Below are positions 8,951 to 27,339 of a DNA stretch of 64,000 bases, piece by piece. The stretch is from positions 115 through 64,114 of the forward strand of contig NDHX01000003.1 in NCBI GenBank assembly GCA_013626165.1. The letters are read 5' to 3'. The translations under genes were made by a program, and so were the position numbers. Source of the stretch: Candidatus Velesiimonas alkalicola (GTDB lineage: Bacteria > Omnitrophota > Gorgyraeia > Velesiimonadales > Velesiimonadaceae). Within the stretch, counting starts at the first letter, position 1, and every line of letters begins with the position of its first letter. Below the pieces are notes generated by a model. It ran no database searches. It was given only the letters and a program-made list of their open reading frames with translations, and was not told the origin of the DNA.

Positions 8951-11401
8951 TTAATTTGCAACTTTATAGTCTCCGCTGTGTCTGTCTTCAAGTTCTGCAA
9001 GCTTTGAAGGATTCCAGTTGTTAATCCTGCTATAATATCCTACTATCCTTGTTATAGAGTATATGTCCTTGCTTAAACAGTGGACGCAAGCGCTGTGTAT
9101 GCCCCTTATAACTTTGCCACAATTGTTACATATACTGAATTCAGGTGATATTGTAAGTTGGGCACAGGATGATTTATAGAATGTCTTTTCAACAAGGTTT
9201 AATATGGATTGTGCAGACGGCATCTGTTCTCCAACAAAGGCATGGATAATCGCTCCTGATTCAATAAGGTTGTGGAACTTTGACTGTTTTTCAATCCTTG
9301 TTACAATATCCACAGGTGCGTCTGCCCTGAGATGTATTGAGTTTGTATAATATATAGTGTCATTTTCAATACTTCCTCTTACGACCGATGCCGCACTTTC
9401 AGGGTATGTTTTAAGGTCAACCTTTGCGAGCCTTCTTGTTGCGCTTTCAGCTGGGCTTTCTTCAAGAGAAAATCTTAAACCTGTTTTTTCAGTTTGCTCT
9501 TGTATTTTTAGATACATTCTTGCCACTATTTTTAAACCTGTTAAGAATGCTAAATCCGATTGATGGAGCTCTTCACCCGTTATAAATTGGACGCATTCGT
9601 TAAGTCCGATAAGTCCTATTATATATGTGCATTTATCAAGATCCACATATGGCCTTCCGTCCTGTGCAGGTTTCCCAATCTGCCATAGTGGCATATGCGG
9701 ATCTTTCATAAGGGAGGCAATAAATTGTTTCTTCTGAAGGTGTGCTCGGACACATATTTCTATCATATGATCAATTTCCTTATAAAGTTGACTTAAATTG
9801 TTCTTCTGAGCTCTGTATGCTGCCTGAGGAAGGTTTACTGTTACATTCTGGAATCCACAGAATCTCATTGATTCCGGATGCTCTATCATAAACTTGTCAT
9901 TTATCTTTTGACGAAGCCTGCAGCACATAGAGAGAACAACCTGGCTTCCCCTGTCAAAAACGAAATATACTGAACCATTGGTACTGGCAACCTCCCCAGC
10001 TGCTTTGAAAAGTTCAAACTGTTTTGGGTCTTCAAATGTTTCTTCCGACACATGAAAATCTGCCTTTGGAAATGCAAATGGTCTACCTAACATATCCCCT
10101 TCTTTCCAGACATCAAGCATAGCCTTACAAAACTCCTGTGAGATTGTTTCATAATCTTTATATGTCTTACCCGTATATTTCCCGTCAGGACCTATTGCAG
10201 GGATATTTTTTAAGTACTCTGGCACTCCTGTATGGATATTAAAATCTATAAAAAGGCTCTGTCCTCCGCGACTGAATGCATTCTGACTTCCTGAAAATAT
10301 CAAATGTTGTGCCTCCTGTTTCATTTCCTTATAGGTCATACCTTCAAGATACGGAGCTAAAAGTATGTTCAAGTAACCTATGCCGAGTGCTCCGGCATAA
10401 TAGGCCTGCATTGATGCAAGAAATGTATTCAGGTGCCCTGTAAGTGTTCTTGCATGCTTTGCAGGGGCGCTTGATGTATCAAGATTACAGATATGGGTAA
10501 GTCCATATTTTTTGATGTATTCAAGTGAATGGCTGGAACAGTAAACCCTTGTCGGATAACCAAGGTCATGGATATGTATAGCACCCTTTAGGTGCGCATC
10601 TGCAATATCGGAGGAGAATATGGATTGCAGAGCGTATTGTTTAAGTGTGTTTTCGGCAATTGCAAGATTTATTGCTTCTGGATTGTTTGATGTTATATTT
10701 GAATTTTCTTTTGTTTTTGAAAATACAAGTTGTTCAAGGTCATATACAGGCATACCTATAACAGAGGTTTTTGATATTTTTTTTGTTAATCCTTTTTCAA
10801 AAAGTTCATTATCAACAAGCTCACGGATAAGAGAGGTGGATATAACTGTTAAGCCTGAATTGATAATTCTCTGTTCAACCTTTGATGCTATCTCCCAAGA
10901 AAGCCCTTCTTCTATCTGAGCCTCTTTTTGAAGTGCACCTGCAATCCTTGCTTTGTCCCATGAAAGAAGTTCATGCCTGCTTGAAGCAGTTACAAGAAGA
11001 GAAACATCAGTTGAAGAAGTCTTTCCCCTCACATAGTGTCTTACCCTCATCTGTTCTCTTGTCTGTTGTCTTTTTTTTCTATAAATAATATATGCCTTTG
11101 CTGTTTTTGCATGACCTGTTTCAATAAGAACCTTCTCAACTATATCTTGTATCTGTTCTATCTCAGGGATATTTTTTTGAAATCTATTTTTTAAGTATAA
11201 TGTTACCGCATTGGCAATCTCCTCAGCCATCAAACGATCCTCACCGCCTACAGCCTTTGCAGCCTTGAATATGGCATCCGCTATCTTTGACCTATCAAAA
11301 GTAACAAGCCGCCCGTCTCTTTTTCTTACCTGTGTGAAATATTTAGCGGATGTAGTTGTTTGTTTTTCTTCTTTTTCTTTCAGAATTGTTTGTGCGGTCA
11401 T
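8951..11401 (-). CDS. nrdD: Anaerobic ribonucleoside-triphosphate reductase (class III)
   Basis: 816 aa. N-terminal ATP-cone (VTFDRSKIADAI). C-terminal Zn-ribbon CNNCGK...CVHC and glycine-radical motif TRIVGYYSR. Confidence 0.85.
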   Translation of the reverse strand: MTAQTILKEKEEKQTTTSAKYFTQVRKRDGRLVTFDRSKIADAIFKAAKAVGGEDRLMAEEIANAVTLYLKNRFQKNIPEIEQIQDIVEKVLIETGHAKTAKAYIIYRKKRQQTREQMRVRHYVRGKTSSTDVSLLVTASSRHELLSWDKARIAGALQKEAQIEEGLSWEIASKVEQRIINSGLTVISTSLIRELVDNELFEKGLTKKISKTSVIGMPVYDLEQLVFSKTKENSNITSNNPEAINLAIAENTLKQYALQSIFSSDIADAHLKGAIHIHDLGYPTRVYCSSHSLEYIKKYGLTHICNLDTSSAPAKHARTLTGHLNTFLASMQAYYAGALGIGYLNILLAPYLEGMTYKEMKQEAQHLIFSGSQNAFSRGGQSLFIDFNIHTGVPEYLKNIPAIGPDGKYTGKTYKDYETISQEFCKAMLDVWKEGDMLGRPFAFPKADFHVSEETFEDPKQFELFKAAGEVASTNGSVYFVFDRGSQVVLSMCCRLRQKINDKFMIEHPESMRFCGFQNVTVNLPQAAYRAQKNNLSQLYKEIDHMIEICVRAHLQKKQFIASLMKDPHMPLWQIGKPAQDGRPYVDLDKCTYIIGLIGLNECVQFITGEELHQSDLAFLTGLKIVARMYLKIQEQTEKTGLRFSLEESPAESATRRLAKVDLKTYPESAASVVRGSIENDTIYYTNSIHLRADAPVDIVTRIEKQSKFHNLIESGAIIHAFVGEQMPSAQSILNLVEKTFYKSSCAQLTISPEFSICNNCGKVIRGIHSACVHCLSKDIYSITRIVGYYSRINNWNPSKLAELEDRHSGDYKVAN

Positions 11402-11868
11402 ATTTTTCCTCCTTTTGTTTTCTTAATAAAGTCTTTTGTTTCGGTTATAAACTGGGTTGCATCTCTGAACTGTCTGTACACGGATGCAAACCTTACATAT
11501 GCTACCTCATCAAGGGTGTGCAATTTTTTCATAAGAAATTCGCCTATCTTTTTTGTATTTACCTCTTTTCCATTTTTTCTTTGCAATTTTCTTTCTAACC
11601 TATCAACTATCTGTGTAATCTTATCAGTGCTTATGGGCCTTTTTTCACAGGCTTTTATCAGCCCTGCAATTGTTTTGTTTCTGTTAAATGGCTCTCTTCT
11701 TCCATCTTTTTTTATTACCATAAGAGGAATGTTTTCTATTTGTTCATATGTTGTAAATCTTTTTTCACATTTAAGACATTCCCTTCGTCTTCTTATAGAT
11801 TCACCGTCCTGACTTGTTCTTGAATCTATTACCCTGTCTTCTATACTATTGCAAAAAGGACATTTCAT
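11398..11868 (-). CDS. nrdR: Transcriptional repressor NrdR (start at the internal MKCPFC)
   Basis: MKCPFCNSIEDRVIDSRTSQDGESIRRRRECLKCEKRFTTYE (Zn-ribbon plus ATP-cone). Stop overlaps the nrdD start. The ORF track has a 26-aa N-terminal extension to 11946. Confidence 0.8.
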   Translation of the reverse strand: MKCPFCNSIEDRVIDSRTSQDGESIRRRRECLKCEKRFTTYEQIENIPLMVIKKDGRREPFNRNKTIAGLIKACEKRPISTDKITQIVDRLERKLQRKNGKEVNTKKIGEFLMKKLHTLDEVAYVRFASVYRQFRDATQFITETKDFIKKTKGGKI

Positions 11869-11892
11869 ATTATACCCCAATTGAGCCCAAAA

Positions 11893-11939
11893 ACACAATG
11901 TATTGTGTATGCAACCAGTATATACACAATATATTGCGC
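11893..11939. promoter_or_regulatory. Two NrdR boxes (16-bp palindromes) spaced 31 bp apart, upstream of nrdR-nrdD
   Basis: acacaatgtattgtgt (11893-11908) and acacaatatattgcgc (11924-11939) match the NrdR box consensus acaCwAtATaTwGtgt. Confidence 0.7.
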
Positions 11940-12020
11940 TTGTCAAGAGCCTAAAATCAGGCTAAATTTGGGGTAAAAACCTGAAAATACGAAAAGGATA
12001 CATTAAAATCTCTTTTTTTC

Positions 12021-13739
12021 TTAAATTTTCCTTGACAATAATAATTTTGCCTGTGTTTCTCCTCCATTTATAAGATAAAGAAGAGGAACTGGTCTGTCCA
12101 CACCTTCTATATAGCAGGGCCTTGAACTCCATGGAGTTACAGAAAGCACATTTGCAAGATCCGTCCAGTATTGTAACCTTGACGGTTCAAGTCCCCATAT
12201 CATATGAAAATGGTTCGCAGGCACATACTGTTTATATTCACCCATTGTTGCATATTTAGGAACAACAAATGTATGTGGCCATGTCAGTGTAGATGTCTTA
12301 CATACAGCATCTGATAGTTTGTCTGGAAGTTCTACCGTTTCTGCTTCGTCCCACACAAGTGAGAACATATTATTTACGGCACTATATGCCATTCTTCCCG
12401 CAATTCCTTTTATTCCCCCTGGTGATACAAATGTTATAGAATTTCCAAGCCCGGGGAAATATCCCTCATCTGCAATCGGAAAAGATACTTTTGACATAAT
12501 CTCTTTTACAGAAGCACCCGGCTTTGCCGCCCAGTTGAAAGAGGCGCTTCCTGAATTATCCCCATCAACAAATCCTCTTTTTTCCCATATATTTTTACCA
12601 TTAAGTTTTATACCCAGTTCTGTGGCAAGTTTTTTTATTTCCCAGGGTTCCCATACTTTCCTAAAATCCATAAAAAGAGGCGGATTTCCTCCTGTAAGAT
12701 ATGTAAAAAATAACATTGTAAGAAGTCCCTGAACATCAGCCTCTGTTGCATATGGAGTGGGCGGCTTCTTACCCTGATGGTCAAATGTAGAATTAAAAAG
12801 CGATTCCATAACATCTGCAACGGGAAGAGGTATCCCCCTTTTATCAGAACCCCATTCCAACTGACTCATAAAACCTCCTCCTACTGCATTAAGGTCTTTC
12901 ATAATATCCCTGGTTATAAGGTACATTGCAAGAGACTTATCAAATCTTTCATCGTCTTCACTGTTTCTTACCTGAATTTTAGTCCTGACAATCTTATCAA
13001 GCCAACCTCTTAAATCCTTTAACTCTTTTTCATTGTATGCCTTTTTTGCAAGCATATCGGCAAGAATCTTCATATCAAGCCGGGTAATTTCAATGCCAAA
13101 TATATTTCTTGTCGGAATTATATGGGCAAGTGCGGTTTCCATTCCCATTGAATCATGCCCAAACACAACGACCCTTCTTCCCTGCAAAGCCTTATATGCA
13201 ACAGCAGCATAACACCAATCTATAAGTGGTCTTGCTGTTGATTCGGTCATTTTTGGATCTATGCCAGTATCGGGCCAGGTTCCGACATTGATGTGCATCA
13301 TCTTCCCATACTGTGCAACCGCACCACTGCATGCATGAACATATACAACACCCGGCTTTGGACCGCTATTGCCGCAAACAAGGTTAAGGGGGGTATCCTT
13401 GGAGAATTGCTGGATAAGTGAGATAAGTGTAGGTTGGGGGAATGCCCATGTATCCGGTGCTCCTACAAGTATATTTACTCCTGCTGATTCAAACTGCCTT
13501 GCAACAATATCAGCCTGTTTTTCTCCATCAATTAATACATCGCTATAAACAACCATTACAGGTGAACCATCTGTAATCTTTACGCCTTCTGCAATAACAT
13601 CTGCTACCATCTGTATTATATTTGCAGCCCTTTTTCTTGAAGTCTTATCAATCCTCGGGTCACAGGGAGCAAACACACCTATAACAGGCTCTTTTATGGG
13701 TTTTAACCCTGATGTAGAAATTTTTATCGCTTTCTCCAT
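12021..13739 (-). CDS. L-fucose/D-arabinose isomerase family protein (FucI-like)
   Basis: 572 aa. Segments resembling E. coli FucI: GGGFMSQLEWGSD, LFMDFRKVWEPWE, TWPHTFVVP...ANHFHMIWG. Confidence 0.6.
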   Translation of the reverse strand: MEKAIKISTSGLKPIKEPVIGVFAPCDPRIDKTSRKRAANIIQMVADVIAEGVKITDGSPVMVVYSDVLIDGEKQADIVARQFESAGVNILVGAPDTWAFPQPTLISLIQQFSKDTPLNLVCGNSGPKPGVVYVHACSGAVAQYGKMMHINVGTWPDTGIDPKMTESTARPLIDWCYAAVAYKALQGRRVVVFGHDSMGMETALAHIIPTRNIFGIEITRLDMKILADMLAKKAYNEKELKDLRGWLDKIVRTKIQVRNSEDDERFDKSLAMYLITRDIMKDLNAVGGGFMSQLEWGSDKRGIPLPVADVMESLFNSTFDHQGKKPPTPYATEADVQGLLTMLFFTYLTGGNPPLFMDFRKVWEPWEIKKLATELGIKLNGKNIWEKRGFVDGDNSGSASFNWAAKPGASVKEIMSKVSFPIADEGYFPGLGNSITFVSPGGIKGIAGRMAYSAVNNMFSLVWDEAETVELPDKLSDAVCKTSTLTWPHTFVVPKYATMGEYKQYVPANHFHMIWGLEPSRLQYWTDLANVLSVTPWSSRPCYIEGVDRPVPLLYLINGGETQAKLLLSRKI

Positions 13740-13779
13740 ACTTCCTCCATTCCAATATTATCTGACTACAATATATGTT

Positions 13780-14694
13780 TTACAATCCTGATTCTTCTAA
13801 TACATCAGGAACATATTTTTCCCACCCCAAAGGCATAATATGAATTCCCTGACATATATTTTTCATACCCTTAATAAGTTCAGCGGCAATCTTTATACTT
13901 GTTTTTACCCTATCTTCCTTTTTTGCTTCAGCCATCATTTTTATATATTTTTCCGGGACATTGATACCTGCAACCTTTTCGTTCATATACTTTGCCATCC
14001 CTGCTGATTTTAACAGAACAATTCCGCCAAGAATCGGAACCTTATATTTTTCTACAATTTTCATAAACCTCTCAAAGGCATTCAAATTATAGACTGCCTG
14101 TGTCTGAAAAAATCTTGCTCCTGCCATAATTTTTTTCTCCATTTTCATAATCTGCGGTTCAAGTGGATCAGAGGATGGACTTACAATTGCCCCAAGAAAA
14201 AATTTAGGGATTCCATCAAGCTCGTTTCCTTTCATATCTTTTCCATTCATCAAATCAGTCGCAACCTTCAATAAACTTATAGAATCTAAATCAAAAACCG
14301 GTTTCGCCTCAGGATGGTCCCCCAGAACAGGATGATCTCCTGTCAAAATAAGAATATTTCTTATTCCAAGGGCATGGGCGCTTAACAGATCCGATTGTAA
14401 AGCCAAACGGTTCCTATCCCTGCAGGTTGCTTGAAAAATCGGTTCAAGCCCTTTTTGAACAAGAAGGCAGGACACAGCAAGGGAGCCTAAACGCATCACA
14501 GAACTTTGTAAATCGGTAACATTGAAAGCATCAATCTTGTTCTTTATATGTTCTGCCTCTTTGATATGCAGTTCAATGTTTGTTCCTTTCGGAGGACCAA
14601 TCTCAGAAGTTATTACAAATTCCCCACGGGTAAGTTTTTTTGCAAAACTCATTCCCCCTCCATTTTCAACAAGGACACGCCAACAAATTCTCAC
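13780..14694 (-). CDS. metF: Methylenetetrahydrofolate reductase
   Basis: 304 aa MTHFR fold. ATGA overlap with the upstream metV stop. Confidence 0.8.
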   Translation of the reverse strand: MRICWRVLVENGGGMSFAKKLTRGEFVITSEIGPPKGTNIELHIKEAEHIKNKIDAFNVTDLQSSVMRLGSLAVSCLLVQKGLEPIFQATCRDRNRLALQSDLLSAHALGIRNILILTGDHPVLGDHPEAKPVFDLDSISLLKVATDLMNGKDMKGNELDGIPKFFLGAIVSPSSDPLEPQIMKMEKKIMAGARFFQTQAVYNLNAFERFMKIVEKYKVPILGGIVLLKSAGMAKYMNEKVAGINVPEKYIKMMAEAKKEDRVKTSIKIAAELIKGMKNICQGIHIMPLGWEKYVPDVLEESGL

Positions 14695-15326
14695 TTGCCT
14701 GTTATATATCTCTGATAATTTCTTATTTTACACTCTGTTGCAATTTCTATTGCTCTTTTCTGTTCTTTTAGTCTGTTATAAATTCTCACCCATCCACATT
14801 CCATCTGTGGATTTACCTCGCATTTCCCATTTTTGTATCCGCCACAGGGACCGTTTAATAAATATTTTGCACAGGCAGTTATGGGACATATACCCCCTGT
14901 ACTGTTAAGATAACATTCACCACACTGCCTACAATCAGAAGGTTGAATATCTAACCCCTGAAATCCATTTACATAAGAGGTATCGCAACCGGTAAAAACA
15001 TACCTTTCTTCTTCACCTAACAATAAGATTTGTGATATTATTTTTGAGATAACCCCAACACCTACGCCACAGGAAAAAACAAGGATTGATTTTGAATTTT
15101 CTATATCGTTTTTATATTTTTCCATATATTCTTTTGAAAAATCCTCATTGCATAAATAATCAAGACGAACAATTCCTGATATTCTCTCCCGGTTTTCAGA
15201 TAAAAACTCATTAATCTCTTCTTCCGGGAAATATACTTCTTTACATCCATAACATTTAATAACAAAAGGGGTTAAGGCAACCAACAGGTCAATATCTTCT
15301 TTCTTCTTAATTTTTGTTATAAGCAT
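14691..15326 (-). CDS. metV: MetV (methylene-THF reductase C-terminal-domain zinc-ribbon protein)
   Basis: 211 aa. Cys cluster CRQCGECYLNSTGGICPITACAKYLLNGPCGGYKNGKCEVNP. Confidence 0.7.
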   Translation of the reverse strand: MLITKIKKKEDIDLLVALTPFVIKCYGCKEVYFPEEEINEFLSENRERISGIVRLDYLCNEDFSKEYMEKYKNDIENSKSILVFSCGVGVGVISKIISQILLLGEEERYVFTGCDTSYVNGFQGLDIQPSDCRQCGECYLNSTGGICPITACAKYLLNGPCGGYKNGKCEVNPQMECGWVRIYNRLKEQKRAIEIATECKIRNYQRYITGK

Positions 15327-17305
15327 TTTCCCTTTGCTCTCTTTATAAAACTCAATATATCTATTTTAGATGAACATATATAATTACAGGAACCGCATTC
15401 AATACAGTTTTTGACCCTATAATTTTTAGTTTCCTCCCACATCTGCCTTTCTCCATAATAAACATAATTCAAGGGCAAAAGTTCAACAGGGCACACAGAA
15501 ACACATCTTCCACATTTAATACATTCTCTTTCTTCTTTTGATTCAACAGGATATTTTTTTAAAATTGTAAAACCGCCTGTTCCTTTAATAACGGCTGAAT
15601 CAAGATTCTTTTGAAGAATACCCATCATTGGACCACCCATAAATATATTATATTCTTCAAAGATATTCTTATTATGCATACCAAGATAAAAATCAAGAAT
15701 ATTTTTTAATGGAGTTCCTATCTTAACAATAAAATTCCCGTCTTTACCAACACCGTCTCCTGAAACTGTTATAACTCTGTCTATTAATGGTATCCCTTCA
15801 AATATTGCCTTGTATATCGCAAGGGCTGTTCCAACATTTATAACAATAGAACCAACCTCTATTGGAAGACCGCCTTCTGGAACATTTTTCCCTGTCAACC
15901 GCTTAATTAACATCTTTTCCGCTCCCTGAGGATACTTTGTCCTTAATGACAAAACAGTTATATCAGAAGAAGAATATTTCTGTAATATCTCTATTGCTTC
16001 TTTCTTGTTATCCTCTATTCCAATGATTGTATTTTTAGGATTTGCAATCTTTTGAAGAACTTTTATGCCCTTTAATATTTTTTCAGGGTACTCTATCATT
16101 ATCCTGTTATCTGTATTAAGATATGGTTCGCATTCACATCCATTAACAATTAATGTTTCAATTGATTTTTTTGAAACCTCAAAAAGAAACTTAACATATG
16201 TGGGAAACATTGCCCCACCAAGCCCGACGATTCCTTTTTCCTTTAATATCTCTATAATGTTTTCTTTTGATAAACCTTCAAAATCAACCGGTTTTATTGA
16301 TTCATCCATAGTATTCTTCCCGTTATTTTCTATAATAATTGCTGGAATTGGTTTTTGTAATGTTGGATGTATTTTTTCTTCAATTTTTACAACCCTTCCG
16401 CTTATACTTGAATGTATTGTAGATGATATCACACCTGTGCTTTCTGCTATCTTCTGACCCATCTTTACTGTATCGCCTTCTTTTACTATCGGTTTTGATA
16501 AAGAACCCGTATGTTGAGAAATAAATATTAATACATATGGGGGCTCTGGAAAATTTAGTATTCTTGCCCTGCTTGTGTTTTCTTTTGAATCCAATGGATG
16601 GACTCCTCCATAAAAACCTTCCTGCCTTTTGCTTAAAGATATTTCGGAATATTTCTTTTTTTCATCAAAATTAAATCTGTTAAAATCTCTTACCTGTATT
16701 TCAGAACAAAATAATTTATTCTGTTTTTTTAGTCTGTTATAAATGTCTTCCCAGGCGCAAGGTATATCGGGGTTAACCTCGCATTTTCCGTTTTTTACAC
16801 CACCACAGGGACCGTTCAAAAGAGACTTAGAACAATTGACTATAGGGCATATCCCTCCTGTTAAATTTAAGTAGCATTGAGAACAGGCAGCACATTTTTC
16901 TTTACTCAGCGATACTCCGTGAAACCCCTCAGGACTTGTTGAATTTCCACTTTGTGGTATTGAATCGCAAAGGGCAAAAATCCTTTTATCAGGGAATTTC
17001 TCAGAAACAAATTGCACCCCAAGTCCGCAGGCTATAATTCCTATTGAATCAAAACTATTTACACCCAACTCAATAAGTTTTTCCGCTGTATGATGATTAT
17101 TACAAAGAAAATCAATACCTGTCCATCCTTTTATTTTGGAGTTCTCCTCTCCCAATATTTCATTTAATCTTTCGCATTCAGGCTCAATATCTGTTTTATA
17201 TTTTTTATAGCACTTTTTACACCAGAGATTAAATATAGAATTTATTTCTCTAAAAATATTTTTTATTTCATCGTCCGGTTTTAAACCATATTTTGTATAA
17301 TCCAT
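15317..17305 (-). CDS. MetV-like domain fused to an RnfC-like NADH-binding/4Fe-4S module
   Basis: 662 aa. N-terminal half is paralogous to metV (CAACSQCYLNLTGGICPIVNCSKSLLNGPCGGVKNGKCEVNP). C-terminal half has RnfC hallmarks (GDTVKMGQKIAES, GLGGAMFPTYVKF, LIVNGCECEPYLNTD, CIKCGRCVSVCP, CIECGSCNYIC). Confidence 0.7.
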   Translation of the reverse strand: MDYTKYGLKPDDEIKNIFREINSIFNLWCKKCYKKYKTDIEPECERLNEILGEENSKIKGWTGIDFLCNNHHTAEKLIELGVNSFDSIGIIACGLGVQFVSEKFPDKRIFALCDSIPQSGNSTSPEGFHGVSLSKEKCAACSQCYLNLTGGICPIVNCSKSLLNGPCGGVKNGKCEVNPDIPCAWEDIYNRLKKQNKLFCSEIQVRDFNRFNFDEKKKYSEISLSKRQEGFYGGVHPLDSKENTSRARILNFPEPPYVLIFISQHTGSLSKPIVKEGDTVKMGQKIAESTGVISSTIHSSISGRVVKIEEKIHPTLQKPIPAIIIENNGKNTMDESIKPVDFEGLSKENIIEILKEKGIVGLGGAMFPTYVKFLFEVSKKSIETLIVNGCECEPYLNTDNRIMIEYPEKILKGIKVLQKIANPKNTIIGIEDNKKEAIEILQKYSSSDITVLSLRTKYPQGAEKMLIKRLTGKNVPEGGLPIEVGSIVINVGTALAIYKAIFEGIPLIDRVITVSGDGVGKDGNFIVKIGTPLKNILDFYLGMHNKNIFEEYNIFMGGPMMGILQKNLDSAVIKGTGGFTILKKYPVESKEERECIKCGRCVSVCPVELLPLNYVYYGERQMWEETKNYRVKNCIECGSCNYICSSKIDILSFIKRAKGKCL

Positions 17306-17307
17306 AG

Positions 17308-18309
17308 TTAGATTCCTGCCTGCATTTTGGTTGTCTGAACAATATTTTTAAGAAGAATTGCAACAGTCATAGGTCCTACGCCTCCTGGGACGGGTGTAAT
17401 CCAGGAGCATTTCTCTTTTGCTTTTTCAAAATCCACATCACCGACTGTTTTCATTTTCGGTTTGCCCTTTTCATTTAATAAAGGATTGCCATTGTGGTCA
17501 AAACCTTCAGGGATTCTGTTTATGGCAATGTCTATGACGGTGCTTCCTTCTTTTATCATACCTGCTTTGATAAGAGCAGATAAATCCGGGACTTTCGGTA
17601 TGGGAAGTGTTTTGTCCTGGCTATATTTCTTCAGTTCCGAATTGTATTTTAACCACACTGCCTGTGATCTACCTGCTGCTGAAAATATAATATCTGCTCT
17701 TTTTGTATGAAAGGCAAGGTCTTTTGTTGCAATATGACAGACTGTAACTGTCGGAGATTCTGTTATTGACTGAAGAAGAAGCATTGCAACCGGCTTTCCC
17801 ACAATCTCACTGTGTCCTACAATAACTGCTTCTAGTCCTTTTAATCTTACACCTGTTGATTTAAGAAGTTCTACTGCACCAAGTGCGGTGCAGGGCCCGA
17901 TTATATTTGTTGCAGATACAAGACGCCCCATATTTGAAGGATGAAGCCCTTCAACATCTTTTTCAGGAGATATTGATACCTGAATCTTTCTTGCATCAAT
18001 GCCCTGGGGCAGAGGCATCTGAAGTATTATACCGGTTATATTCTTATTACTATTTAGTTTCTTAATCTCAGAAAGTATATTTTCTTCTGTTTCTGTGTCC
18101 GACATCTGGTCAAGTGTATACAATATACCCATCTGCTCACAGGTTTTCTGTTGTTGTCCCACATATATTTTTGAGGCTGGATTTTCACCCAATTGAACAG
18201 CAACAAGATAAGGCACTTTGCCTTTTGATTTTAATTCTGATATTTCTTTTTTTAATTTCTCTTTTATTCTGCCTGCAAGGACCTCACCATCAAGTATTTT
18301 TGCTGACAC
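17308..18309 (-). CDS. folD: Bifunctional methylene-THF dehydrogenase/methenyl-THF cyclohydrolase (with C-terminal extension)
   Basis: 333 aa. N-terminal MSAKILDGEVLAGRIKEKLKKEI...YLVAVQLGENPASKIYV. Confidence 0.85.
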   Translation of the reverse strand: MSAKILDGEVLAGRIKEKLKKEISELKSKGKVPYLVAVQLGENPASKIYVGQQQKTCEQMGILYTLDQMSDTETEENILSEIKKLNSNKNITGIILQMPLPQGIDARKIQVSISPEKDVEGLHPSNMGRLVSATNIIGPCTALGAVELLKSTGVRLKGLEAVIVGHSEIVGKPVAMLLLQSITESPTVTVCHIATKDLAFHTKRADIIFSAAGRSQAVWLKYNSELKKYSQDKTLPIPKVPDLSALIKAGMIKEGSTVIDIAINRIPEGFDHNGNPLLNEKGKPKMKTVGDVDFEKAKEKCSWITPVPGGVGPMTVAILLKNIVQTTKMQAGI

Positions 18310-18971
18310 TATTTTCCTCCATTTTTCCTGTTAGCGGTCATCTTATTTTTTACTATATCAAGCGTATTTTTACTTGTTTTTTCTATCTCTTTTGTGATAA
18401 CTTCAAGTTCATTTTTTGCACACTGGATAAACACCTCATCTTTTATTGAAGACAAATTTATCTGGACATTAAGCACAGCTGATCTGTATGCAGACTCAAG
18501 CAACAATACTCCTACACCGACATCGCTTATCAGATTTTTATTACATTTTTGTGCAAGCTCTTCACACATTTTTATAGACCGAAAACAGGTCTTACATATT
18601 TCAAAAGGAACGCTTGTTGCAGATTTTAGTGCATCCTGTATCTTTTCATATCTGTTTGGGTCCTTTTTTGGTATTTTCCAAGCCTGTCTTATTTTTTTAT
18701 ACACCAATACATCTTCATCCACAAGTTCCATAAGTTTTTTTCTACAAGATTCTGTTATATTTAAGAAAAGTTTAATATCTTCTTCTACATCTTTATATTT
18801 TTCTTTACCAAGGGTAAGGTTTGCAGACATAGAAAGACAGGCGCAACCTATTGCACCTGTAAGTGCAGAAGCACTCCCTCCTCCCGGTGCAGGAAGGTTT
18901 GAGGCAAGGTCGTTTAAGTAGACTTCAAAAGATTTATAATATTTAGTGTTTATTTCTTCTTTAGGTACCAT
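18309..18971 (-). CDS. fchA: Cyclodeaminase/cyclohydrolase family protein (FTCD C-terminal-like, FchA-like)
   Basis: 220 aa. LPAPGGGSASALTGAIGCACLSMSANLTLGKEKY. Confidence 0.7.
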   Translation of the reverse strand: MVPKEEINTKYYKSFEVYLNDLASNLPAPGGGSASALTGAIGCACLSMSANLTLGKEKYKDVEEDIKLFLNITESCRKKLMELVDEDVLVYKKIRQAWKIPKKDPNRYEKIQDALKSATSVPFEICKTCFRSIKMCEELAQKCNKNLISDVGVGVLLLESAYRSAVLNVQINLSSIKDEVFIQCAKNELEVITKEIEKTSKNTLDIVKNKMTANRKNGGK

Positions 18972-18974
18972 TTT

Positions 18975-19949
18975 TTACGCCCACCACATCCTGCCAGCAG
19001 ATTCTTTTAATATAATTTTTTTAAGAAAATCCACCGCTTTATAAAATCCTTCGTCTTTGCTCATAAGACTGTCTTCATGCTCTATTGAAAGAACCCCGTC
19101 ATACCTGACCATACGAAGTGTACTTACAAAGTCTTTCCAGAAATCTTCACCATGCCCATATCCAACTGTTCTGAATATCCATGACCTTACGCTTTCTTTT
19201 CCATAAGATTTTGTATCCAGAACCCCGTTTATTTTTGAATTTGCCTCGTATATTTTTGTATCTTTTGAATGAATATGGAATATTGTTTTCTCCAGCGCCC
19301 TTACCGATAATATCGGGTCTATGCCCTGCCAGAAAAGGTGGCTCGGGTCAAAGTTTGCACCTATATTTTCCCCACATTCTGCCCTTAACCTTAATAATGT
19401 CTCTGTATTGTAGACAACAAAACCGGGATGCATCTCAAAACATATTCTTACTCCATGCTCTCTGGCTACTTTCGCCTCTTGTTTCCAGTAGGGTATAACC
19501 TTTTTATTCCACTGCCATTCCACAATCTGTGTAAAATCCTCAGGCCAGGGACAAGTAACCCAGTTAGGGAATTTTGCATCTTCACTATCACCCGGACACC
19601 CGGAAAAATTTACCACATTTTTTACACCCAATTTTTTTGCAAGTCTAATGGTCTTTCTATGTGTCTGGTGATGTTCTCTTGCTATTTTTTTATCAGGATG
19701 CAGAGGATTTCCATGACAGGAAAGCGCACTTATTATAAGTCCATTGTCTTTTATCATAGCAAGGTATTCCTTGCATTTCCCGTCACTTTCAAGAAGTTTA
19801 TCCACAGGGCAATGTGAAGAGCCGGGATAGTTTCCAGTCCCAATTTCAATTGCCTCAAGTCCTGCCTCTGCAAATTTTACAAGTGCTTTTTCAAATTCTA
19901 CATCTCCATAAAGAACAGTAAATACACCAAGTTTCATATTCCCCTCCAA
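18975..19949 (-). CDS. Sugar phosphate isomerase/epimerase (xylose isomerase-like TIM barrel)
   Basis: 324 aa. Family-level similarity only. Confidence 0.6.
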   Translation of the reverse strand: MEGNMKLGVFTVLYGDVEFEKALVKFAEAGLEAIEIGTGNYPGSSHCPVDKLLESDGKCKEYLAMIKDNGLIISALSCHGNPLHPDKKIAREHHQTHRKTIRLAKKLGVKNVVNFSGCPGDSEDAKFPNWVTCPWPEDFTQIVEWQWNKKVIPYWKQEAKVAREHGVRICFEMHPGFVVYNTETLLRLRAECGENIGANFDPSHLFWQGIDPILSVRALEKTIFHIHSKDTKIYEANSKINGVLDTKSYGKESVRSWIFRTVGYGHGEDFWKDFVSTLRMVRYDGVLSIEHEDSLMSKDEGFYKAVDFLKKIILKESAGRMWWA

Positions 19950-19963
19950 TTTTTAATTTTTTC

Positions 19964-21118
19964 TTATATTTTTATCCATTTTTTTTCTTTAACAGATTGC
20001 ATTACAGCATCTAACACTTTCTGACATTTAAGCCCATCCTCAAAATTAGGAGAAGGCATCCTGTTATCAGCAATATCATTGAGAAGATCATATATAGTGT
20101 TTATAAATGTATGCTCATAGCCTATTATATGTCCGGGTGGCCAGTAGCCGTCTATATATGGATGAATACCTGGTTCGGTAACAAGTATTGTCCTGAAGCC
20201 CTGTATGTGTGAAGGGTCTTTTCTTGAATAAAATTTAAGTTCATTCATTCTCTCAAACTCAAAAACAAGACTTCCTTCACTTCCATTTATTTCTATTTTT
20301 TCACCATTTTTTCTTCCTGCTGCAAATCTTGTTGCCTCAAAACTTCCCAGTGCTCCATTTTTAAACCTTGCAAGAAAAAGCATCGCATCGTCAACCGTAA
20401 CCTTACCCTTCTTGGGAGAACTTTTGGCAGAAAGTCCTTCCGTTGTTGCAGATAATACAGGTCTTTGTTTTATAAATGTTTCACTGCAACCTACAACCTC
20501 ATCAAAATCTCCTGCAAGAAACCTTGTAAGGTCTATAAGATGAGCATTTAAGTCACCGTGTGAACCTGAACCTGCAACCCTGCTGTCCAACCTCCATACA
20601 AGAGGAAATTCAGGATTTATAATCCAGTCCTGCAAATAAACAGCCCTTATATGGTATATCCTTCCGATTCTTCCCTCATCTATAATTTTTTTTGCAAGAG
20701 AAATGGCAGGAACCCTCCTGTAATTAAAACAAATCATATGTTTTACTCCTGCTTTTTTAACCGCATTAACCATCTTTTTTGCTTCTTCACTATTCATAGC
20801 AAGAGGTTTTTCACAAAGAATATGCTTCCCTGCTTTTGCTGCCTCAATGGCAATCTCACAGTGCGTATCATTGGGGGTTGAAATATCAACCAGATGTATG
20901 TCATCTCTTTTTATAAGTTTTTTCCAATCAGTTTCATATGTTTCCCATCCCCAGTTTTGTTGAACATTTATCACTTCTTTTTCATGCCTTCCGCATATAG
21001 CTCTCATTACCGGTTTAATCTTTGGCTTAAAAAATTTATTTACTTTCAAAAAAGCGTTTGAATGAGCCTTTCCCATAAACTTATAACCTACAAGTCCTAC
21101 ACCAATTGTATCAGCCAT
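19964..21118 (-). CDS. Gfo/Idh/MocA family oxidoreductase
   Basis: 384 aa. N-terminal Rossmann fold IGVGLVGYKFMGKAHSNAF. Confidence 0.7.
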   Translation of the reverse strand: MADTIGVGLVGYKFMGKAHSNAFLKVNKFFKPKIKPVMRAICGRHEKEVINVQQNWGWETYETDWKKLIKRDDIHLVDISTPNDTHCEIAIEAAKAGKHILCEKPLAMNSEEAKKMVNAVKKAGVKHMICFNYRRVPAISLAKKIIDEGRIGRIYHIRAVYLQDWIINPEFPLVWRLDSRVAGSGSHGDLNAHLIDLTRFLAGDFDEVVGCSETFIKQRPVLSATTEGLSAKSSPKKGKVTVDDAMLFLARFKNGALGSFEATRFAAGRKNGEKIEINGSEGSLVFEFERMNELKFYSRKDPSHIQGFRTILVTEPGIHPYIDGYWPPGHIIGYEHTFINTIYDLLNDIADNRMPSPNFEDGLKCQKVLDAVMQSVKEKKWIKI

Positions 21119-21139
21119 ATGTTCTCCTATTTTTTTATG

Positions 21140-21265
21140 TTTACCGTTAACTGTTCACCGTATTCCGTTACCCATATTCCATATCCCGTCGCCCGTATTC
21201 CGTATACCGCATTTCATAAAAGATACTTACGATGATATACGAACAAAGGTTTTCCCTGTTATCCA
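21140..21265. repeat. Family B intergenic repeat (MITE-like), copy 1, left end degenerate
   Basis: The core tatcccgtcgcccgtattccgtataccgcatttcataaaagatacttacgatgatatacgaac is shared with 39157-39219. The right terminal aaaggttttccctgttatcc is similar to the copy-2 TIR. Confidence 0.6.
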
Positions 21266-21291
21266 TCACTTATAACCCTGCTTACTGTTTT

Positions 21292-22992
21292 TTAAAACAG
21301 TCCCACTATTTTTCCTTTCTTATCAATATCAACCCTTTCACCGCAGGGTTCTGTAGGAAGTCCCGGCATTGTTCTCATTGTCCCGCAAAGAGGATATAGA
21401 AAACCAGCACCTACTGATGCCCTGATATCTCTTACAGGTAATGTATAGCCCGTAGGTCTTCCCTTCCGTTCAGGGTCGTGTGAAAGTGAAAGATGTGTCT
21501 TTGCCATGCATACAGGCACTCTATCAAATCCCCATTCTGTGTACTGCTTTATCTTTTTCTCTGCAATCGGCGAATATTCAACCTTTGCTGCACCATATAT
21601 TTCAGTGGCAATCGCTTTAATTTTTTCTTTTATAGAAATATTAAGCGGATATAAGAACCTGAACTTGTTCGGTTTATCTGTTGCTTTTACGACTGCCTGT
21701 GCAAGGTCTTTTCCACCTTCTCCGCCTTTTTCCCATACATCACTTACAACAGCATCATCCGCCCCGGCATCAATTGCTTTTTTTCTTATAAGAGCAATCT
21801 CTTTATCTGTATCGGTTGTGAACCTGTTTATTGCTACAACAACAGGCACCTTAAAAAGCCTCATATTTTCTATCTGTTTTTCAAGGTTACATATACCTTC
21901 TTCTATTGCCGGAAGATTTTCTTTTGTCAAACCCGGGTCAAGCGGTTTTCCTGCCACAACCTTGAACTTTCCTGAGTGCATCTTCAGCGCCCTTACTGAA
22001 CATACAACAACCGTTGCATTTGGAACAAGATTGCTCTGTCTGCATTTTATATTAAAAAATTTCTCTGCACCCATATCCGCACCAAAACCTGCCTCTGTTA
22101 CAACAAAATCAGAAAGACGAACCGCTATCTTATCTGCAATAATAGATGAGTTTCCATGTGCAATATTTGCAAAAGATCCTGCATGGACAAATGCGGCGGT
22201 ATGTTCTGTTGTCTGCATAAGGTTTGGTTTTATAGCATCCTTTAACAGAGCTGTCATAGCACCCGCAACCTTTATATCTTCTGCTGTTACGGGTTTTCCA
22301 TCGTATGTGGAAGCAAGTACAATCTTCCCCAATCGTTTTCTTAAATCTTTTAAGTCTGTTGTAAGAGCAAGTATGGCCATTATCTCGCTTGCAGCAGATA
22401 TATCAAAACCTGACTCCCTGGGAACTCCATCTTCTTTTCCACCGAGTCCTATTACGATATTCCGCAGCGCCCTGTCGCTTACATCTACGACCCTTCTCCA
22501 GGTGATACTTAAAGGGTCTATATTTATTGTTCTTTTAAGAAGTGCATTGTCAAGAAATGCCGCACAAAGGTTATGCGCAAGAGATACCGCATGCACATCT
22601 CCCGTAAGATGAAGATTGAAGTCCTCCACTGGAAGAACCTGTGAATATCCTCCGCCTGCTGCGCCACCTTTTATGCCAAATACAGGCCCCAGTGAAGGCT
22701 GCCTTATACAGGTTATTATCTTTTTACCTATTTTCGCAAGCCCCAATGAAAGACCTATGGTTGTAACAGTTTTCCCCTCACCCAACGGTGTTGGTGTTAT
22801 TGCGGTTACAACAATATATTTTGCCTGTGGTCTGTTCTTTATTTTTTCAAGAATTTCAAGAATAACCTTTGCTTTGAACTTTCCATAAAGTTCAAGTTCA
22901 TCCTCTTTAATCCCGATTTTTTCTGCTATTTTTGTAATTGGTTCAATCTTCGCAGACTGCGCGATTTCCAAGTCGCTTGGTATCTTTGACAT
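21292..22992 (-). CDS. fhs: Formate--tetrahydrofolate ligase
   Basis: 566 aa. [15 protein letters not shown] and the FTHFS signature. Confidence 0.9.
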
Positions 22993-23569
22993 ACCCCTCC
23001 TTTGAATGGTGTATTATAAGATTATTTTTGATATTTCTTTATATTTTATGACATTTTCCCATATACTGCATTTATTGCCTTATTTCTTATCCTGCAAGAA
23101 TCGCACTTTCAGCAAGTGCAGATGCAATACTTAAAAATATTATATTTCTGGAAGGAACATATGTCTGCGGGACATTAAGTCTTATATCGGATGTTCTTAC
23201 TCTTAAACCTGAAGATGTATGAGGGCAGACTTCCAAACAGGCAGATCAAGTTTTGCAATATATAAGGGAACTTTTGCTTTTTGGACAATTTTTTTTGCAG
23301 ATTCAATCTCACATTTGTGCCTCTGGTTGCATCCTATAATGCATTGAAAACAAAATAAGGATTGCATTGATTACACAGATTTTTAAATCCGATTACACAG
23401 ATTTCGACAGCAATCTTTATCTGTGTAATCTAAACTAATCTGTGTAATCATACCTTTATTTATTTGACAGAGCACTATAAGCATGGCAAAAGGTAAAAAT
23501 CCTCTGTTTTTTGCAAAAAAAGTGTAACAGATGAATCAAGCCCTCCCGATAAAAGAACCACACACTTTT

Positions 23570-23938
23570 TCACAATATATATGTTGCTGCTGCTGTATCC
23601 TTTTCCCAAACCTTTATACTTATTATCTTAATTTTTTTTAAATCTTTATCTTTTTTTAACTCCTGTGCAATATATTTTGTAATATTTTCTGATGTTGGGT
23701 TGTTTTTTTTAAAGTATGGAATTTCATTAAGGTATGTATGGTCAATTTTTGATAATATACTCTTCAAAGAATCTCTTAAAACCGTAAAATCAATAACCAT
23801 ACCTAATCTGTTTAGGATTCCTGTTACGCTAACCTCAACCTTCCAGTTATGCCCGTGGAGTTTTTCGCATTCGCCCTGATATTCTCTTAAATTATGGGCG
23901 CCACTGAATGTCTCATATATGCAAATCTGAAACGGCAT
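23570..23938 (-). CDS. queD: 6-carboxy-5,6,7,8-tetrahydropterin synthase (6-pyruvoyl-tetrahydropterin synthase family)
   Basis: 122 aa. CEKLHGHNWKVEV motif. Confidence 0.8.
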   Translation of the reverse strand: MPFQICIYETFSGAHNLREYQGECEKLHGHNWKVEVSVTGILNRLGMVIDFTVLRDSLKSILSKIDHTYLNEIPYFKKNNPTSENITKYIAQELKKDKDLKKIKIISIKVWEKDTAAATYIL

Positions 23939-23954
23939 ATTACCTTTCCTTAAT

Positions 23955-24752
23955 CTACAAGGTTATTATTGCTGTTATTTTTTCTCCAAGAATCTTTGTT
24001 CCAATCTTTTCAAAACCTTCAGGGTCATCACTTACATAACATTTAAGGAAACCTTTATTGTTTGGACTTAAAATCTTATTTTTTTCAAGGTAATCTTTGA
24101 CAGAACTTGCACAGACGGAGGCTGAATTTACGATATAAATTTTTTTACCCAGAATCTTACTTATAGTGCTTTCAAGAATTGGATAATGCGTACAACCTAA
24201 AATAAGTGTATCTATGTTTTTATCAATTAAACCCCTTAAATACTCTCTTGCAATATCTTCAACAATCTTTCCTCCTGTTCTTCCTTCTTCAACCAGCGGG
24301 ACAAATAAAGGACAGGCTTTACTAAAAACTTTTAAACCTGAATCTAACTTAATGAGATGCTTTTGATATGACTGGCTCTTAATTGTTGTCTGTGTGCCTA
24401 TGACACCTATTCTTTTATTTCTTGTTTTCTTTGCCGCAATTTTTGCACCCGGTTCAATCACACCCATAATAGGAACAGAAAAGTATTTTTCCAGTGTTGA
24501 AAGTGCCACACTTGAAGAAGTATTGCAGGCAATGATTATTATTTTTACTTTATGTTTTAAAAAAAACAACACATTTTCTATTGAAAAACGAAGTATGGTA
24601 TCATTTGACTTTGTGCCGTAAGGAACCCTTGCCGTATCCCCGAAATATATTATAGACTCACGGGGGAGGATTTTTCTTATCTGCTTAACAACTGTAAGCC
24701 CACCGAGCCCTGAGTCAAAAACGCCTATGGGAAGCCTGCCTGGAGAAACCAT
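23955..24752 (-). CDS. murI: Glutamate racemase
   Basis: 265 aa. VFDSGLGGLTV ... LGCTHYP. Confidence 0.85.
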   Translation of the reverse strand: MVSPGRLPIGVFDSGLGGLTVVKQIRKILPRESIIYFGDTARVPYGTKSNDTILRFSIENVLFFLKHKVKIIIIACNTSSSVALSTLEKYFSVPIMGVIEPGAKIAAKKTRNKRIGVIGTQTTIKSQSYQKHLIKLDSGLKVFSKACPLFVPLVEEGRTGGKIVEDIAREYLRGLIDKNIDTLILGCTHYPILESTISKILGKKIYIVNSASVCASSVKDYLEKNKILSPNNKGFLKCYVSDDPEGFEKIGTKILGEKITAIITL

Positions 24753-25824: not shown

Positions 25825-26066
25825 TTTTTTCTTAAAAAAAATATACCGCTCTGTTAATTCCCATTCCCTTTTATGGCAAGAGTATATTCCGTTGTCTGTT
25901 TATCTTGTACTTCATACAATACTGGGGTGGTAGCGTTTATTTGACCAAATCTGAACTTTTTTGCCTGCGCCTGCCAAAGTCCGAAGGACAACAGAGGGAG
26001 CAAAACTGACGCTCCGCCCCCCAGAGGCCTTTGAATCACTCTACATTCAAAAAATCTCAGTGATTC

Positions 26067-26456
26067 TCATTTCATTAGCCTGCTCACCAGCCAGATAACC
26101 ACCACGAGCACCAGTATCACTAATGCCAGCTTGATGATGCCCGGCCCCACCAGCCTGGCTGCTACCAGAATAAACACCAGCAAGATAACAGGCACGATAA
26201 ACCAGCCCCAGAACCTCCCGGATGGTAATTCCCTCATGGAGGTTACTCCCCCGGAGTGATCATATGCCGCCCTCCTGTCAGAATCGGAGAGCACCTCATA
26301 GGCTTCATTAAGCTGCTTCATCTTCTCGGCCGCATCCGGCGAGGTGCTCACATCGGGATGGTACTTTGCTGCCAGTCGGCGATAGGCGGCGACGACCACC
26401 TCTCTGTCTGCCTCGGGATGGACCTGCAGGGTAGCGTAATAGTCAGGCTTTCCCAT
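26067..26456 (-). CDS. J-domain (DnaJ-like) membrane protein, inside the high-GC island
   Basis: 129 aa. DYYATLQVHPEADREVVVAAYRRLAAKYHPD plus a C-terminal TM helix. GC-rich codon usage. Confidence 0.7.
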   Translation of the reverse strand: MGKPDYYATLQVHPEADREVVVAAYRRLAAKYHPDVSTSPDAAEKMKQLNEAYEVLSDSDRRAAYDHSGGVTSMRELPSGRFWGWFIVPVILLVFILVAARLVGPGIIKLALVILVLVVVIWLVSRLMK

Positions 26457-26472
26457 TGCCTAAGTGCGGTTC

Positions 26473-27339
26473 TCATTCCCTGGGCTGCGGACTCACCAGG
26501 AATCTGAAGAGCTCGGAGTTAGATCCCAACACCAGGGTAGTTTCCCCAACAAGGAATTTCTCGTATGCCTCCAGTGTCCTCAGAAAGGCGTAGAACTCAG
26601 GGGCTTGCCCAAAGGCTTCGGCATAGATGCTGGCGGCCCCAGCTTCTCCCTCTCCCCTGAGGATCAGGGCAGCCCTCTCAGCCTCGGCCAGTAGAACCAC
26701 TACCTCTCTATCTGCGCTGGCCCTGATTTTCATGGCCTCCTGTGCCCCTTCAGCACGAGCCTCCTTGGCCATCCGGTCTCGCTCCGCTCTCATCCGGGCA
26801 AAAACAGCCTCTTCTACCCCTTCAGGGAGGTCGGCCCTTCTCATCCGGACGTCTATTACCTCGATACCAAACTCACGGCGAGCAACCTCATCTACATGTC
26901 GGCCTACGGTCTCCATAATCGGCTTCCTCTCGACGCTAATTATGTCCCAGAGGTTGTGTCGAGCAATCTCCTCCCGTAATCTGGAGATAGCAATGCTATT
27001 TAACCTGAGCCTGGCCCCATGTTCATCTCTTACCGACTCGTAAAATCGGAGCGGAACTACAATCCGCCACCGGCTGTAACTATCCACCAGCAGCCTCTCT
27101 TTGTCCAGGGTAATGAACTCCGTCGCCGGGGCATCAGCAAACAATATCCTTCTTTCCATGCGGGATACTGTTTGAATGAAAGGGACTTTGAAGTTTATCC
27201 CTGGTTCCTTGATCGTCCTTATATATTCCCCAAATTGCAGAATGATCGCCTGCTCAGCCTCGTCTATCGTAAATATGGTCTGACCTAACATGAACATGGC
27301 CGCCACTACGATTATTACGGTTATCATTAATTTTCTCAT
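26473..27339 (-). CDS. hflC: HflC (SPFH/band-7 protease modulator), inside the high-GC island
   Basis: 288 aa SPFH domain. GC-rich. Confidence 0.8.
   Translation of the reverse strand: MRKLMITVIIVVAAMFMLGQTIFTIDEAEQAIILQFGEYIRTIKEPGINFKVPFIQTVSRMERRILFADAPATEFITLDKERLLVDSYSRWRIVVPLRFYESVRDEHGARLRLNSIAISRLREEIARHNLWDIISVERKPIMETVGRHVDEVARREFGIEVIDVRMRRADLPEGVEEAVFARMRAERDRMAKEARAEGAQEAMKIRASADREVVVLLAEAERAALILRGEGEAGAASIYAEAFGQAPEFYAFLRTLEAYEKFLVGETTLVLGSNSELFRFLVSPQPRE

Follow-up and report, generated by a model that had tools for sequence, protein, structure and literature searches.

The type III methylenetetrahydrofolate reductase (MTHFR) of Acetobacterium woodii is encoded by Awo_c09290-09310 (Poehlein 2012, Bertsch 2015, Oppinger 2021). 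Its genes belong to cluster II, which takes on the order fhs1-fchA-folD-rnfC2-metV-metF (PMC3315566), and RnfC2 bears an N-terminal MetV-like extension of ~220 amino acids (aa) (Poehlein 2012, PMC3315566; Oppinger 2021, PMC8760232). As summarized in PMC8760232 from Bertsch 2015, the enzyme is composed of RnfC2, MetF, and MetV in a 1:1:1 ratio and harbors 2 flavin mononucleotides (FMN) and about 24 Fe, which fits the six predicted [4Fe-4S] clusters. By the same summary, the enzyme depends on NADH and is fast (248 U/mg), and ferredoxin neither stimulates it nor is reduced by it. The DNA described here, a stretch of 64,000 nucleotides from Candidatus Velesiimonas alkalicola (contig NDHX01000003.1, hereafter the window), carries an eight-gene block on the minus strand at 13780-22992. 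Sequence comparison identifies this block, with a probability of roughly 0.88, as a Wood-Ljungdahl methyl-branch operon encoding a type III (RnfC2-MetV-MetF) MTHFR of the A. woodii kind. It is a new, uncharacterized member of a known enzyme type, located outside the Firmicutes, and its minor novelties are the host and two embedded sugar genes.

The original prediction had outlined these eight genes and named them a Wood-Ljungdahl methyl-branch cluster. The list of open reading frames (ORFs) matches that outline exactly, Pfam backs each assignment, and Pfam and NCBIfam together uphold the identification of the cluster. The genes are given below as read along the minus strand, together with the gene that follows metF (THF, tetrahydrofolate).

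21292..22992, minus strand: fhs, formate-tetrahydrofolate ligase, 566 aa (Pfam FTHFS, 6.6e-260)
19964..21118, minus strand: GFO/IDH/MocA NAD-dependent sugar oxidoreductase, levoglucosan-dehydrogenase-like, 384 aa (Pfam GFO_IDH_MocA and C-terminal domains)
18975..19949, minus strand: xylose-isomerase-like TIM-barrel protein of about 320 aa (ORF of 324 aa; Pfam AP_endonuc_2, 4e-35)
18309..18971, minus strand: fchA, methenyl-THF cyclohydrolase, 220 aa (Pfam FTCD_C, 3.8e-59)
17308..18309, minus strand: folD, methylene-THF dehydrogenase/cyclohydrolase, 333 aa (Pfam THF_DHG_CYH and THF_DHG_CYH_C)
15317..17305, minus strand: rnfC2, whole gene, 662 aa (Pfam, NCBIfam)
16631..17305, minus strand: N-terminal MetV-like domain of rnfC2, residues 1-225 (PF12225, 1.3e-27)
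15317..16621, minus strand: RnfC-like NADH/FMN/2x[4Fe-4S] module of rnfC2, residues 229-662 (RnfC_N, Complex1_51K, SLBB, Fer4)
14691..15326, minus strand: metV, small cysteine-rich MTHFR subunit, 211 aa (PF12225, 1.8e-29)
13780..14652, minus strand: metF, catalytic MTHFR subunit, 290 aa from the ATG (PF02219, 4.7e-36)
12021..13739, minus strand: fucose/arabinose-isomerase-like gene, 572 aa (Pfam Fucose_iso_N1 and N2)

The defining feature of the block is the 662-aa protein, which had been read as a fusion of a MetV-like domain with an RnfC-like NADH/FeS module. This reading is borne out by Pfam and NCBIfam, and all four families that it named are present. PF12225 covers residues 128-198, followed by RnfC_N (residues 231-330, 1.4e-28), Complex1_51K (residues 355-498, 8.6e-47), an SLBB domain, and a Fer4 dicluster (2x[4Fe-4S]) at residues 591-647. 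The NCBIfam model TIGR01945 for rnfC scores 482 bits across residues 231-660. The two halves also resemble their separate counterparts directly: the first 229 aa share 41% identity with the neighboring free MetV (E 1e-43), and residues 229-659 match the RnfC structure PDB 9eri_C (E 7e-107). Three motifs can be read in the sequence, namely GLGGAMFPT, which aligns with the RnfC structure 9eri_C, CIKCGRCVSVCP, and CIECGSCNYIC. PF12225 and the RnfC domains occur together in 120/120 of the best-scoring representatives of 90%-identity clusters (50-99% identity to the window protein, 660-690 aa). In an alignment of 18 homologs, the linker between the two halves (residues 200-230) is conserved and ungapped, and R227 and G234 are invariant.

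A free MetV and a MetF encoded after the fused gene had likewise been predicted, and both are confirmed by the Pfam matches listed above. The free MetV shares 46-50% identity with the MetVs of Acetobacterium and Blautia. MetF is 51% identical to the Acetobacterium protein and 71-83% identical to MetF from candidate phyla. The alignment of the 18 homologs has 12 invariant cysteines in the RnfC2 N-domain. Comparison of the N-domain with the free MetV likewise gives 12 cysteine columns that do not vary in either paralog, and all 13 cysteine columns that are conserved among free MetVs (13/13) are present in the window MetV. The 12 shared cysteines would be enough for two [4Fe-4S] clusters and a Zn site in each paralog. 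Two clusters each in the N-domain and in MetV, together with the two of the RnfC ferredoxin domain, match the six clusters predicted for the type III enzyme.

The locus was compared with A. woodii by means of the published description and with A. paludosum, A. tundrae, and an Acetobacterium metagenome-assembled genome (MAG) as stand-ins, as A. woodii was not among the loci recovered. In A. paludosum (L031), the order fhs-fhs-fchA-folD is followed by a 654-aa fused protein, MetV (205 aa), and MetF (298 aa). The 654-aa protein is built from PF12225, RnfC_N, Complex1_51K, SLBB, and Fer4, and residues 2-658 of the window RnfC2 align with it end to end at 45% identity. When a single genome was scanned for each species, 80 loci were recovered, of which 51 encode full-length fused proteins and 29 an ordinary RnfC. 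Most of the 51 full-length loci match from residues 1-2 to residues 654-659, whereas the matches in the 29 ordinary loci start only at about residue 200-231. Full-length matches at 42-46% identity come from A. paludosum, A. tundrae, the Acetobacterium MAG, several Blautia, Sporobacter termitidis, Marvinbryantia, and many Lachnospiraceae and Oscillospiraceae; those at 53-56% come from Dehalococcoidales, Omnitrophota, Ratteibacteria, and Aerophobetes. A tblastn synteny map places a free metV and metF behind the fused rnfC2 in 48/51 of these loci, and the exceptions are two loci that end at a contig edge and one that is disrupted. In a 99% identical NCBI contig (BBPF01001770.1, L001, positions 11990-12794), metV is missing from the record between rnfC2 and metF. 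The gene is intact by tblastn (residues 1-208, 100% identity), which makes this a gene-calling omission and no real absence.

The origin of the fusion was addressed by a neighbor-joining tree that combines the RnfC2 N-domains and the free MetVs of 18 organisms, with a stand-alone MetV-like protein, encoded beside a second metF in L033, as the root. The RnfC2 N-domains group together in 98/100 bootstraps and the free MetVs in 100/100, and both clades show the same split between Firmicutes and candidate phyla. Two separate clades with parallel splits point to a single duplication and fusion before these lineages diverged. The window N-domain falls in the clade with the Acetobacterium sequences and the window MetV in the free-MetV clade. 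By this tree, the MetV-like domain is an ancient MetV paralog that occurs in every RnfC2 examined, and no new fusion is indicated in the window. The fused protein is likewise placed as an ortholog of the Acetobacterium-type RnfC2. Within this family it belongs to a clade sister to Acetobacterium that comprises Ratteibacteria, Omnitrophota, Aerophobetes, Dehalococcoidia, and Elusimicrobia. The genome that supplied the root, from one Lachnospiraceae, carries its second pair of a stand-alone MetV-like protein and MetF, which is type II-like, at 5979-7522, about 4 kb upstream of rnfC2-metV-metF. Two types of MTHFR are thus apparently encoded close to each other in this genome.

The window thus shares with type III MTHFR a MetF (PF02219, typically about 290-300 aa), a separate cysteine-rich MetV (PF12225, typically about 205-215 aa) encoded directly upstream of metF, a fused RnfC2, the gene order, and orthology over the full length. 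Compared with A. woodii, the three genes and their order are the same, as are the upstream fhs, fchA, and folD and the domain plan of RnfC2. Against Acetobacterium, the identities are 45% for RnfC2, 46% for MetV, and 51% for MetF, with the same set of conserved cysteines. The differences from A. woodii are an uncultured host that is no Firmicute acetogen and encodes lipid A and outer-membrane genes, the placement of the sequence in the sister clade, two sugar genes between fhs and fchA, and an insertion in FolD. The type II MetVF enzymes of Clostridium ljungdahlii, Thermoanaerobacter kivui, and Eubacterium callanderi have in common with the window a MetF and a cysteine-rich PF12225 MetV. They lack RnfC2 and an NADH site and use reduced ferredoxin in vitro (PMC8760232), whereas in the window rnfC2 directly precedes metV. 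The type IV MetFV-HdrABC-MvhD enzymes of Moorella thermoacetica and Sporomusa ovata share the MetF and MetV core and the Wood-Ljungdahl context. In the window, however, no hdr or mvhD genes adjoin, no hdr genes are found among the annotated ORFs of the whole 64 kb, and the NADH module is RnfC-like.

The closest relative in fold is RnfC of the Rnf complex itself (PDB 9eri_C, 7zc6_C, and 8ahx_C), which aligns as a whole with window residues 229-660 (E 7e-107 to 4e-81) and shares the FMN/NADH motif and two CxxCxxCxxxC(P) motifs. Genuine RnfC has no MetV-like N-domain of 225 aa and is encoded together with rnfDGEAB; the window RnfC2 is the opposite on both counts. In public annotation (NCBI "bacterium Unc6" entries identical to the window proteins), RnfC2 is called "RsxC" and MetV "hypothetical protein." The label of an RnfC/RsxC of the Rnf complex was considered and rejected, given the extra PF12225 domain of 225 aa and no rnf partners among the annotated ORFs of the window.

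By orthology with the A. woodii enzyme, catalysis would start in the RnfC-like module of RnfC2, where NADH would be oxidized at the FMN. The electrons would subsequently pass through the [4Fe-4S] clusters of the RnfC ferredoxin domain, the MetV-like N-domain of RnfC2, and MetV. They would then reach the flavin of MetF, which would reduce 5,10-methylene-THF to 5-methyl-THF. Neither ferredoxin nor bifurcation would take part in this scheme.

The genes that encode the predicted enzyme are packed tightly, with 1- and 10-bp overlaps (fchA/folD and rnfC2/metV, respectively) and gaps of 2-38 bp, of which 38 bp lie between metV and metF. The predicted order rnfC2-metV-metF on one strand holds in the window, and we infer that the three genes are co-transcribed. 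A promoter consensus scan of 11300-24000 returned 40 promoter-like sites against 41.6 expected, which is the chance level, and terminator-like matches in the same interval all lie inside coding sequence. As these scans are uninformative, the operon limits are drawn from gene spacing alone. An Rfam scan of the window returned one tmRNA and three tRNAs only and nothing inside the cluster. The ORF of metF runs on to a GTG at 14694, and starting at the ATG at 14652 gives 290 aa. The ATG is most likely the start, because GGAGGGGG stands just before it, the MetF homologs align only from residue 15 of the longer ORF onward, and the gene as annotated by NCBI yields 290 aa. Fhs shares 53% identity with Acetobacterium Fhs and scores above the cutoff of its NCBIfam model (NF010030, 813 bits, cutoff 652); FchA falls below its own (MthfCyhylaseFchA, 204 bits, cutoff 275).

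Several points weigh against a type III methyl-branch operon in this organism. The window RnfC2 is only 45% identical to that of Acetobacterium, and the biochemistry of type III is, by the account in PMC8760232, known for A. woodii alone, which bears on the clade outside the Firmicutes. A PDB sequence search with the free MetV gave no match at E <= 1. The two embedded sugar genes are absent from the loci of other species that were compared and have no evident link to C1 metabolism. Finally, no genes for carbon monoxide dehydrogenase/acetyl-CoA synthase (CODH/ACS) or formate dehydrogenase and no rnf partner genes are found among the annotated ORFs of the 64-kb window, which leaves a complete Wood-Ljungdahl pathway and the direction of the reaction unproven in this organism.

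This last point gives rise to the alternative that survives best, in which the enzyme is the same but serves another role than acetogenesis in an organism without CODH/ACS. The methyl branch could then take up or supply NADH in sugar fermentation, or it could serve the oxidation of formate or methyl groups, a reductive-glycine-type route, or methionine synthesis. NAD-dependent sugar-oxidizing genes lie inside and flank the operon, no acs or cooS occurs within the 64 kb, and a relative (L084) has genes for a PfkB-family sugar kinase and a GH172 protein directly upstream of fchA. However, the absence of acs and cooS covers the window only, about half of the contig of 130,873 bp, and CODH/ACS and RACo genes directly adjoin the locus in relatives of the same RnfC2 clade. 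In a Dehalococcoidia genome (L088), Prismane, CdhC, CdhD, and CooC are encoded upstream of rnfC2-metV-metF and formate dehydrogenase downstream. In an Aerophobetes genome (L090), AcsB, AcsC, RACo, CooC, AcsD, AcsE, and fhs precede the three genes and folD follows. Since CODH/ACS stands directly beside rnfC2-metV-metF in these relatives, a Wood-Ljungdahl role is well supported for the clade, and it is only probable for the organism of the window. A role apart from acetogenesis is considered rather unlikely, though it deserves the most weight among the alternatives.

The surroundings of the operon describe the host. The set of strict-anaerobe genes that the original prediction had cited is found in the window, with NrdD/NrdR and a three-subunit 2-oxoacid:ferredoxin oxidoreductase. 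Genes for LpxA, an LpxC-FabZ fusion, LpxD, LpxI, OmpH, and KdtA are present too, and these lipid A and OmpH genes indicate a host with an outer membrane. LpxC and FabZ (a FabA-like dehydratase) are fused into one protein of 437 aa (5600-6913, minus strand) within an lpxI-lpxA-lpxC/fabZ-lpxD-ompH cluster, and KdtA is located at 60529-61806. Other genes of the window form a dcw cell-wall cluster or encode the D subunit of a V-type ATPase. Literature searches returned no paper on RnfC2 with Omnitrophica and none of relevance on Ratteibacteria with Wood-Ljungdahl.

Two further relatives place the same three genes next to hydrogenases. In a genome named Omnitrophica (L085, 1-10023), rnfC2-metV-metF lies right downstream of an Mbh/Mrp-type [NiFe]-hydrogenase membrane complex with HycI. 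In L086 (6000-9911), it lies right downstream of a soluble group-3-like [NiFe]-hydrogenase, also with HycI. This suggests an H2-linked C1 reduction in these two lineages.

A more specific alternative takes the sugar genes as its starting point and holds that the methyl-branch operon of this lineage captured three of them, whose products would include a levoglucosan-dehydrogenase-like NAD-dependent sugar 3-dehydrogenase and a TIM-barrel enzyme resembling a 3-keto-sugar hydratase. The NADH-consuming MTHFR would then be co-expressed with one sugar-oxidizing route, and the folate branch would form a dedicated electron sink for that sugar instead of a part of classical acetogenesis, possibly in an organism without a carbonyl branch. 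The genes for the GFO/IDH and TIM-barrel proteins lie between fhs and fchA; 14 bp separate the two, and 3 bp separate the TIM-barrel gene from fchA. The GFO/IDH protein matches PDB 4h3v (E 5.7e-133) and 6a3f (E 1.6e-102) and scores below the cutoff of the NCBIfam model LevoglcsnDh (430 bits, cutoff 650). The TIM-barrel protein matches PDB 2zds (2.9e-19) and, distantly, 8ro4, a "2-hydroxy-3-keto-glucal hydratase" (8e-10). The third gene, fucose/arabinose-isomerase-like, starts 40 bp downstream of metF and is possibly part of the same transcript. Its product matches the D-arabinose isomerase PDB 3a9r (3.8e-31) and is far below the cutoff of the FucI equivalog in NCBIfam (151 bits, cutoff 775). 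Among the 88 related loci compared, the GFO/TIM arrangement recurs only in L001 and L002, which are of the same species; the GFO, TIM-barrel, and fucose/arabinose-isomerase-like genes are found in none of the loci of other species. The capture of a sugar route by the operon is considered unlikely, and markedly less probable than a non-acetogenic role in general.

Compared with Acetobacterium FolD, the FolD of the window carries a 29-aa insertion at residues about 214-242 in the NAD(P)-binding domain, and Pfam splits THF_DHG_CYH_C into two stretches. The FolD of the relative L084 has a similar length (331 aa) and is 68% identical. The sugar genes and the FolD insertion are lineage-specific details and do not constitute a new system.

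It has also been proposed that RnfC2 docks on the membrane-bound Rnf complex in place of RnfC and thereby wires methylene-THF reduction to an ion pump (Poehlein 2012, model B). The model was put forward for A. woodii (PMC3315566), PMC8760232 takes it up again as a hypothesis on MetVF enzymes, and the great similarity of the RnfC module to genuine RnfC would suit it. On the other hand, purification of the A. woodii enzyme gave a soluble complex of RnfC2, MetV, and MetF (1:1:1) with high NADH:methylene-THF activity, as PMC8760232 reports from Bertsch 2015, and neither the window nor any of the related loci inspected has rnfD/G/E/A/B beside rnfC2. Docking to Rnf is thus very unlikely, and a soluble type III enzyme is preferred.

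The original prediction itself had gone further and had taken the covalent joining of MetV to RnfC, in the presence of a second MetV, for a new electron-input architecture unlike the A. woodii complex. The fusion and the second MetV are both real, and an architecture hidden behind the database name "RsxC" is not visible from annotation. The novelty fails, however, because the A. woodii RnfC2 itself carries the N-terminal MetV-like domain (PMC3315566, PMC8760232), so the premise of an A. woodii RnfC2 without it was wrong. The domain order and gene order are shared by A. paludosum, A. tundrae, Blautia, Sporobacter, and others, the 48/51 loci agree, and the tree gives one ancient fusion common to all. 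A distinct architecture is therefore refuted from several sides.

An assembly or sequencing artefact, in which a lost stop codon or a frameshift joined metV to rnfC, is conceivable a priori, and both halves do resemble genes that stand separately elsewhere, but it is refuted by the five 662-aa sequences in the 90%-identity cluster (four on separate NCBI contigs, one sequence-identical), the same fused frame in the Logan assembly (L002), the 120 homologous clusters with both domains, the unbroken linker, and the full-length matches in 51 species genomes.

Some features of the window lie apart from the operon. The GC content rises sharply to 0.54 at 26001-28000, against about 0.37 elsewhere in the window. 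This island takes in two neighboring Band_7/SPFH genes (26473-27339 and 27336-28370) as well as a small gene with a DnaJ domain, and horizontal acquisition or an unusual compositional constraint may account for it. Nearly all genes of the window are on the minus strand; of the only two annotated on the plus strand, one encodes an IS200-like Y1 transposase (PF01797, 32303-33139). At 1-2428, only short ORFs and none of at least 120 aa are listed, and the listing omits genes that run off the start of the window.

For enzymology, the finding adds little, as the description of the architecture dates from 2012 and the purification of the enzyme from 2015. Its meaning lies in the distribution of the fused RnfC2-MetV-MetF, which is widespread beyond the Firmicutes in Ratteibacteria, Omnitrophota, Aerophobetes, Dehalococcoidia, and Elusimicrobia. 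Because the fused protein is uniformly annotated as "RsxC/RnfC" in these uncultured groups, metabolic reconstructions may miss an NADH-dependent, non-bifurcating MTHFR or wrongly infer an Rnf complex. Either error alters the estimated ATP yield of the Wood-Ljungdahl pathway. In addition, the one ancient duplication and fusion of MetV, with its parallel paralog topologies, offers a clean case of co-evolving paralogs for structural work on the complex.

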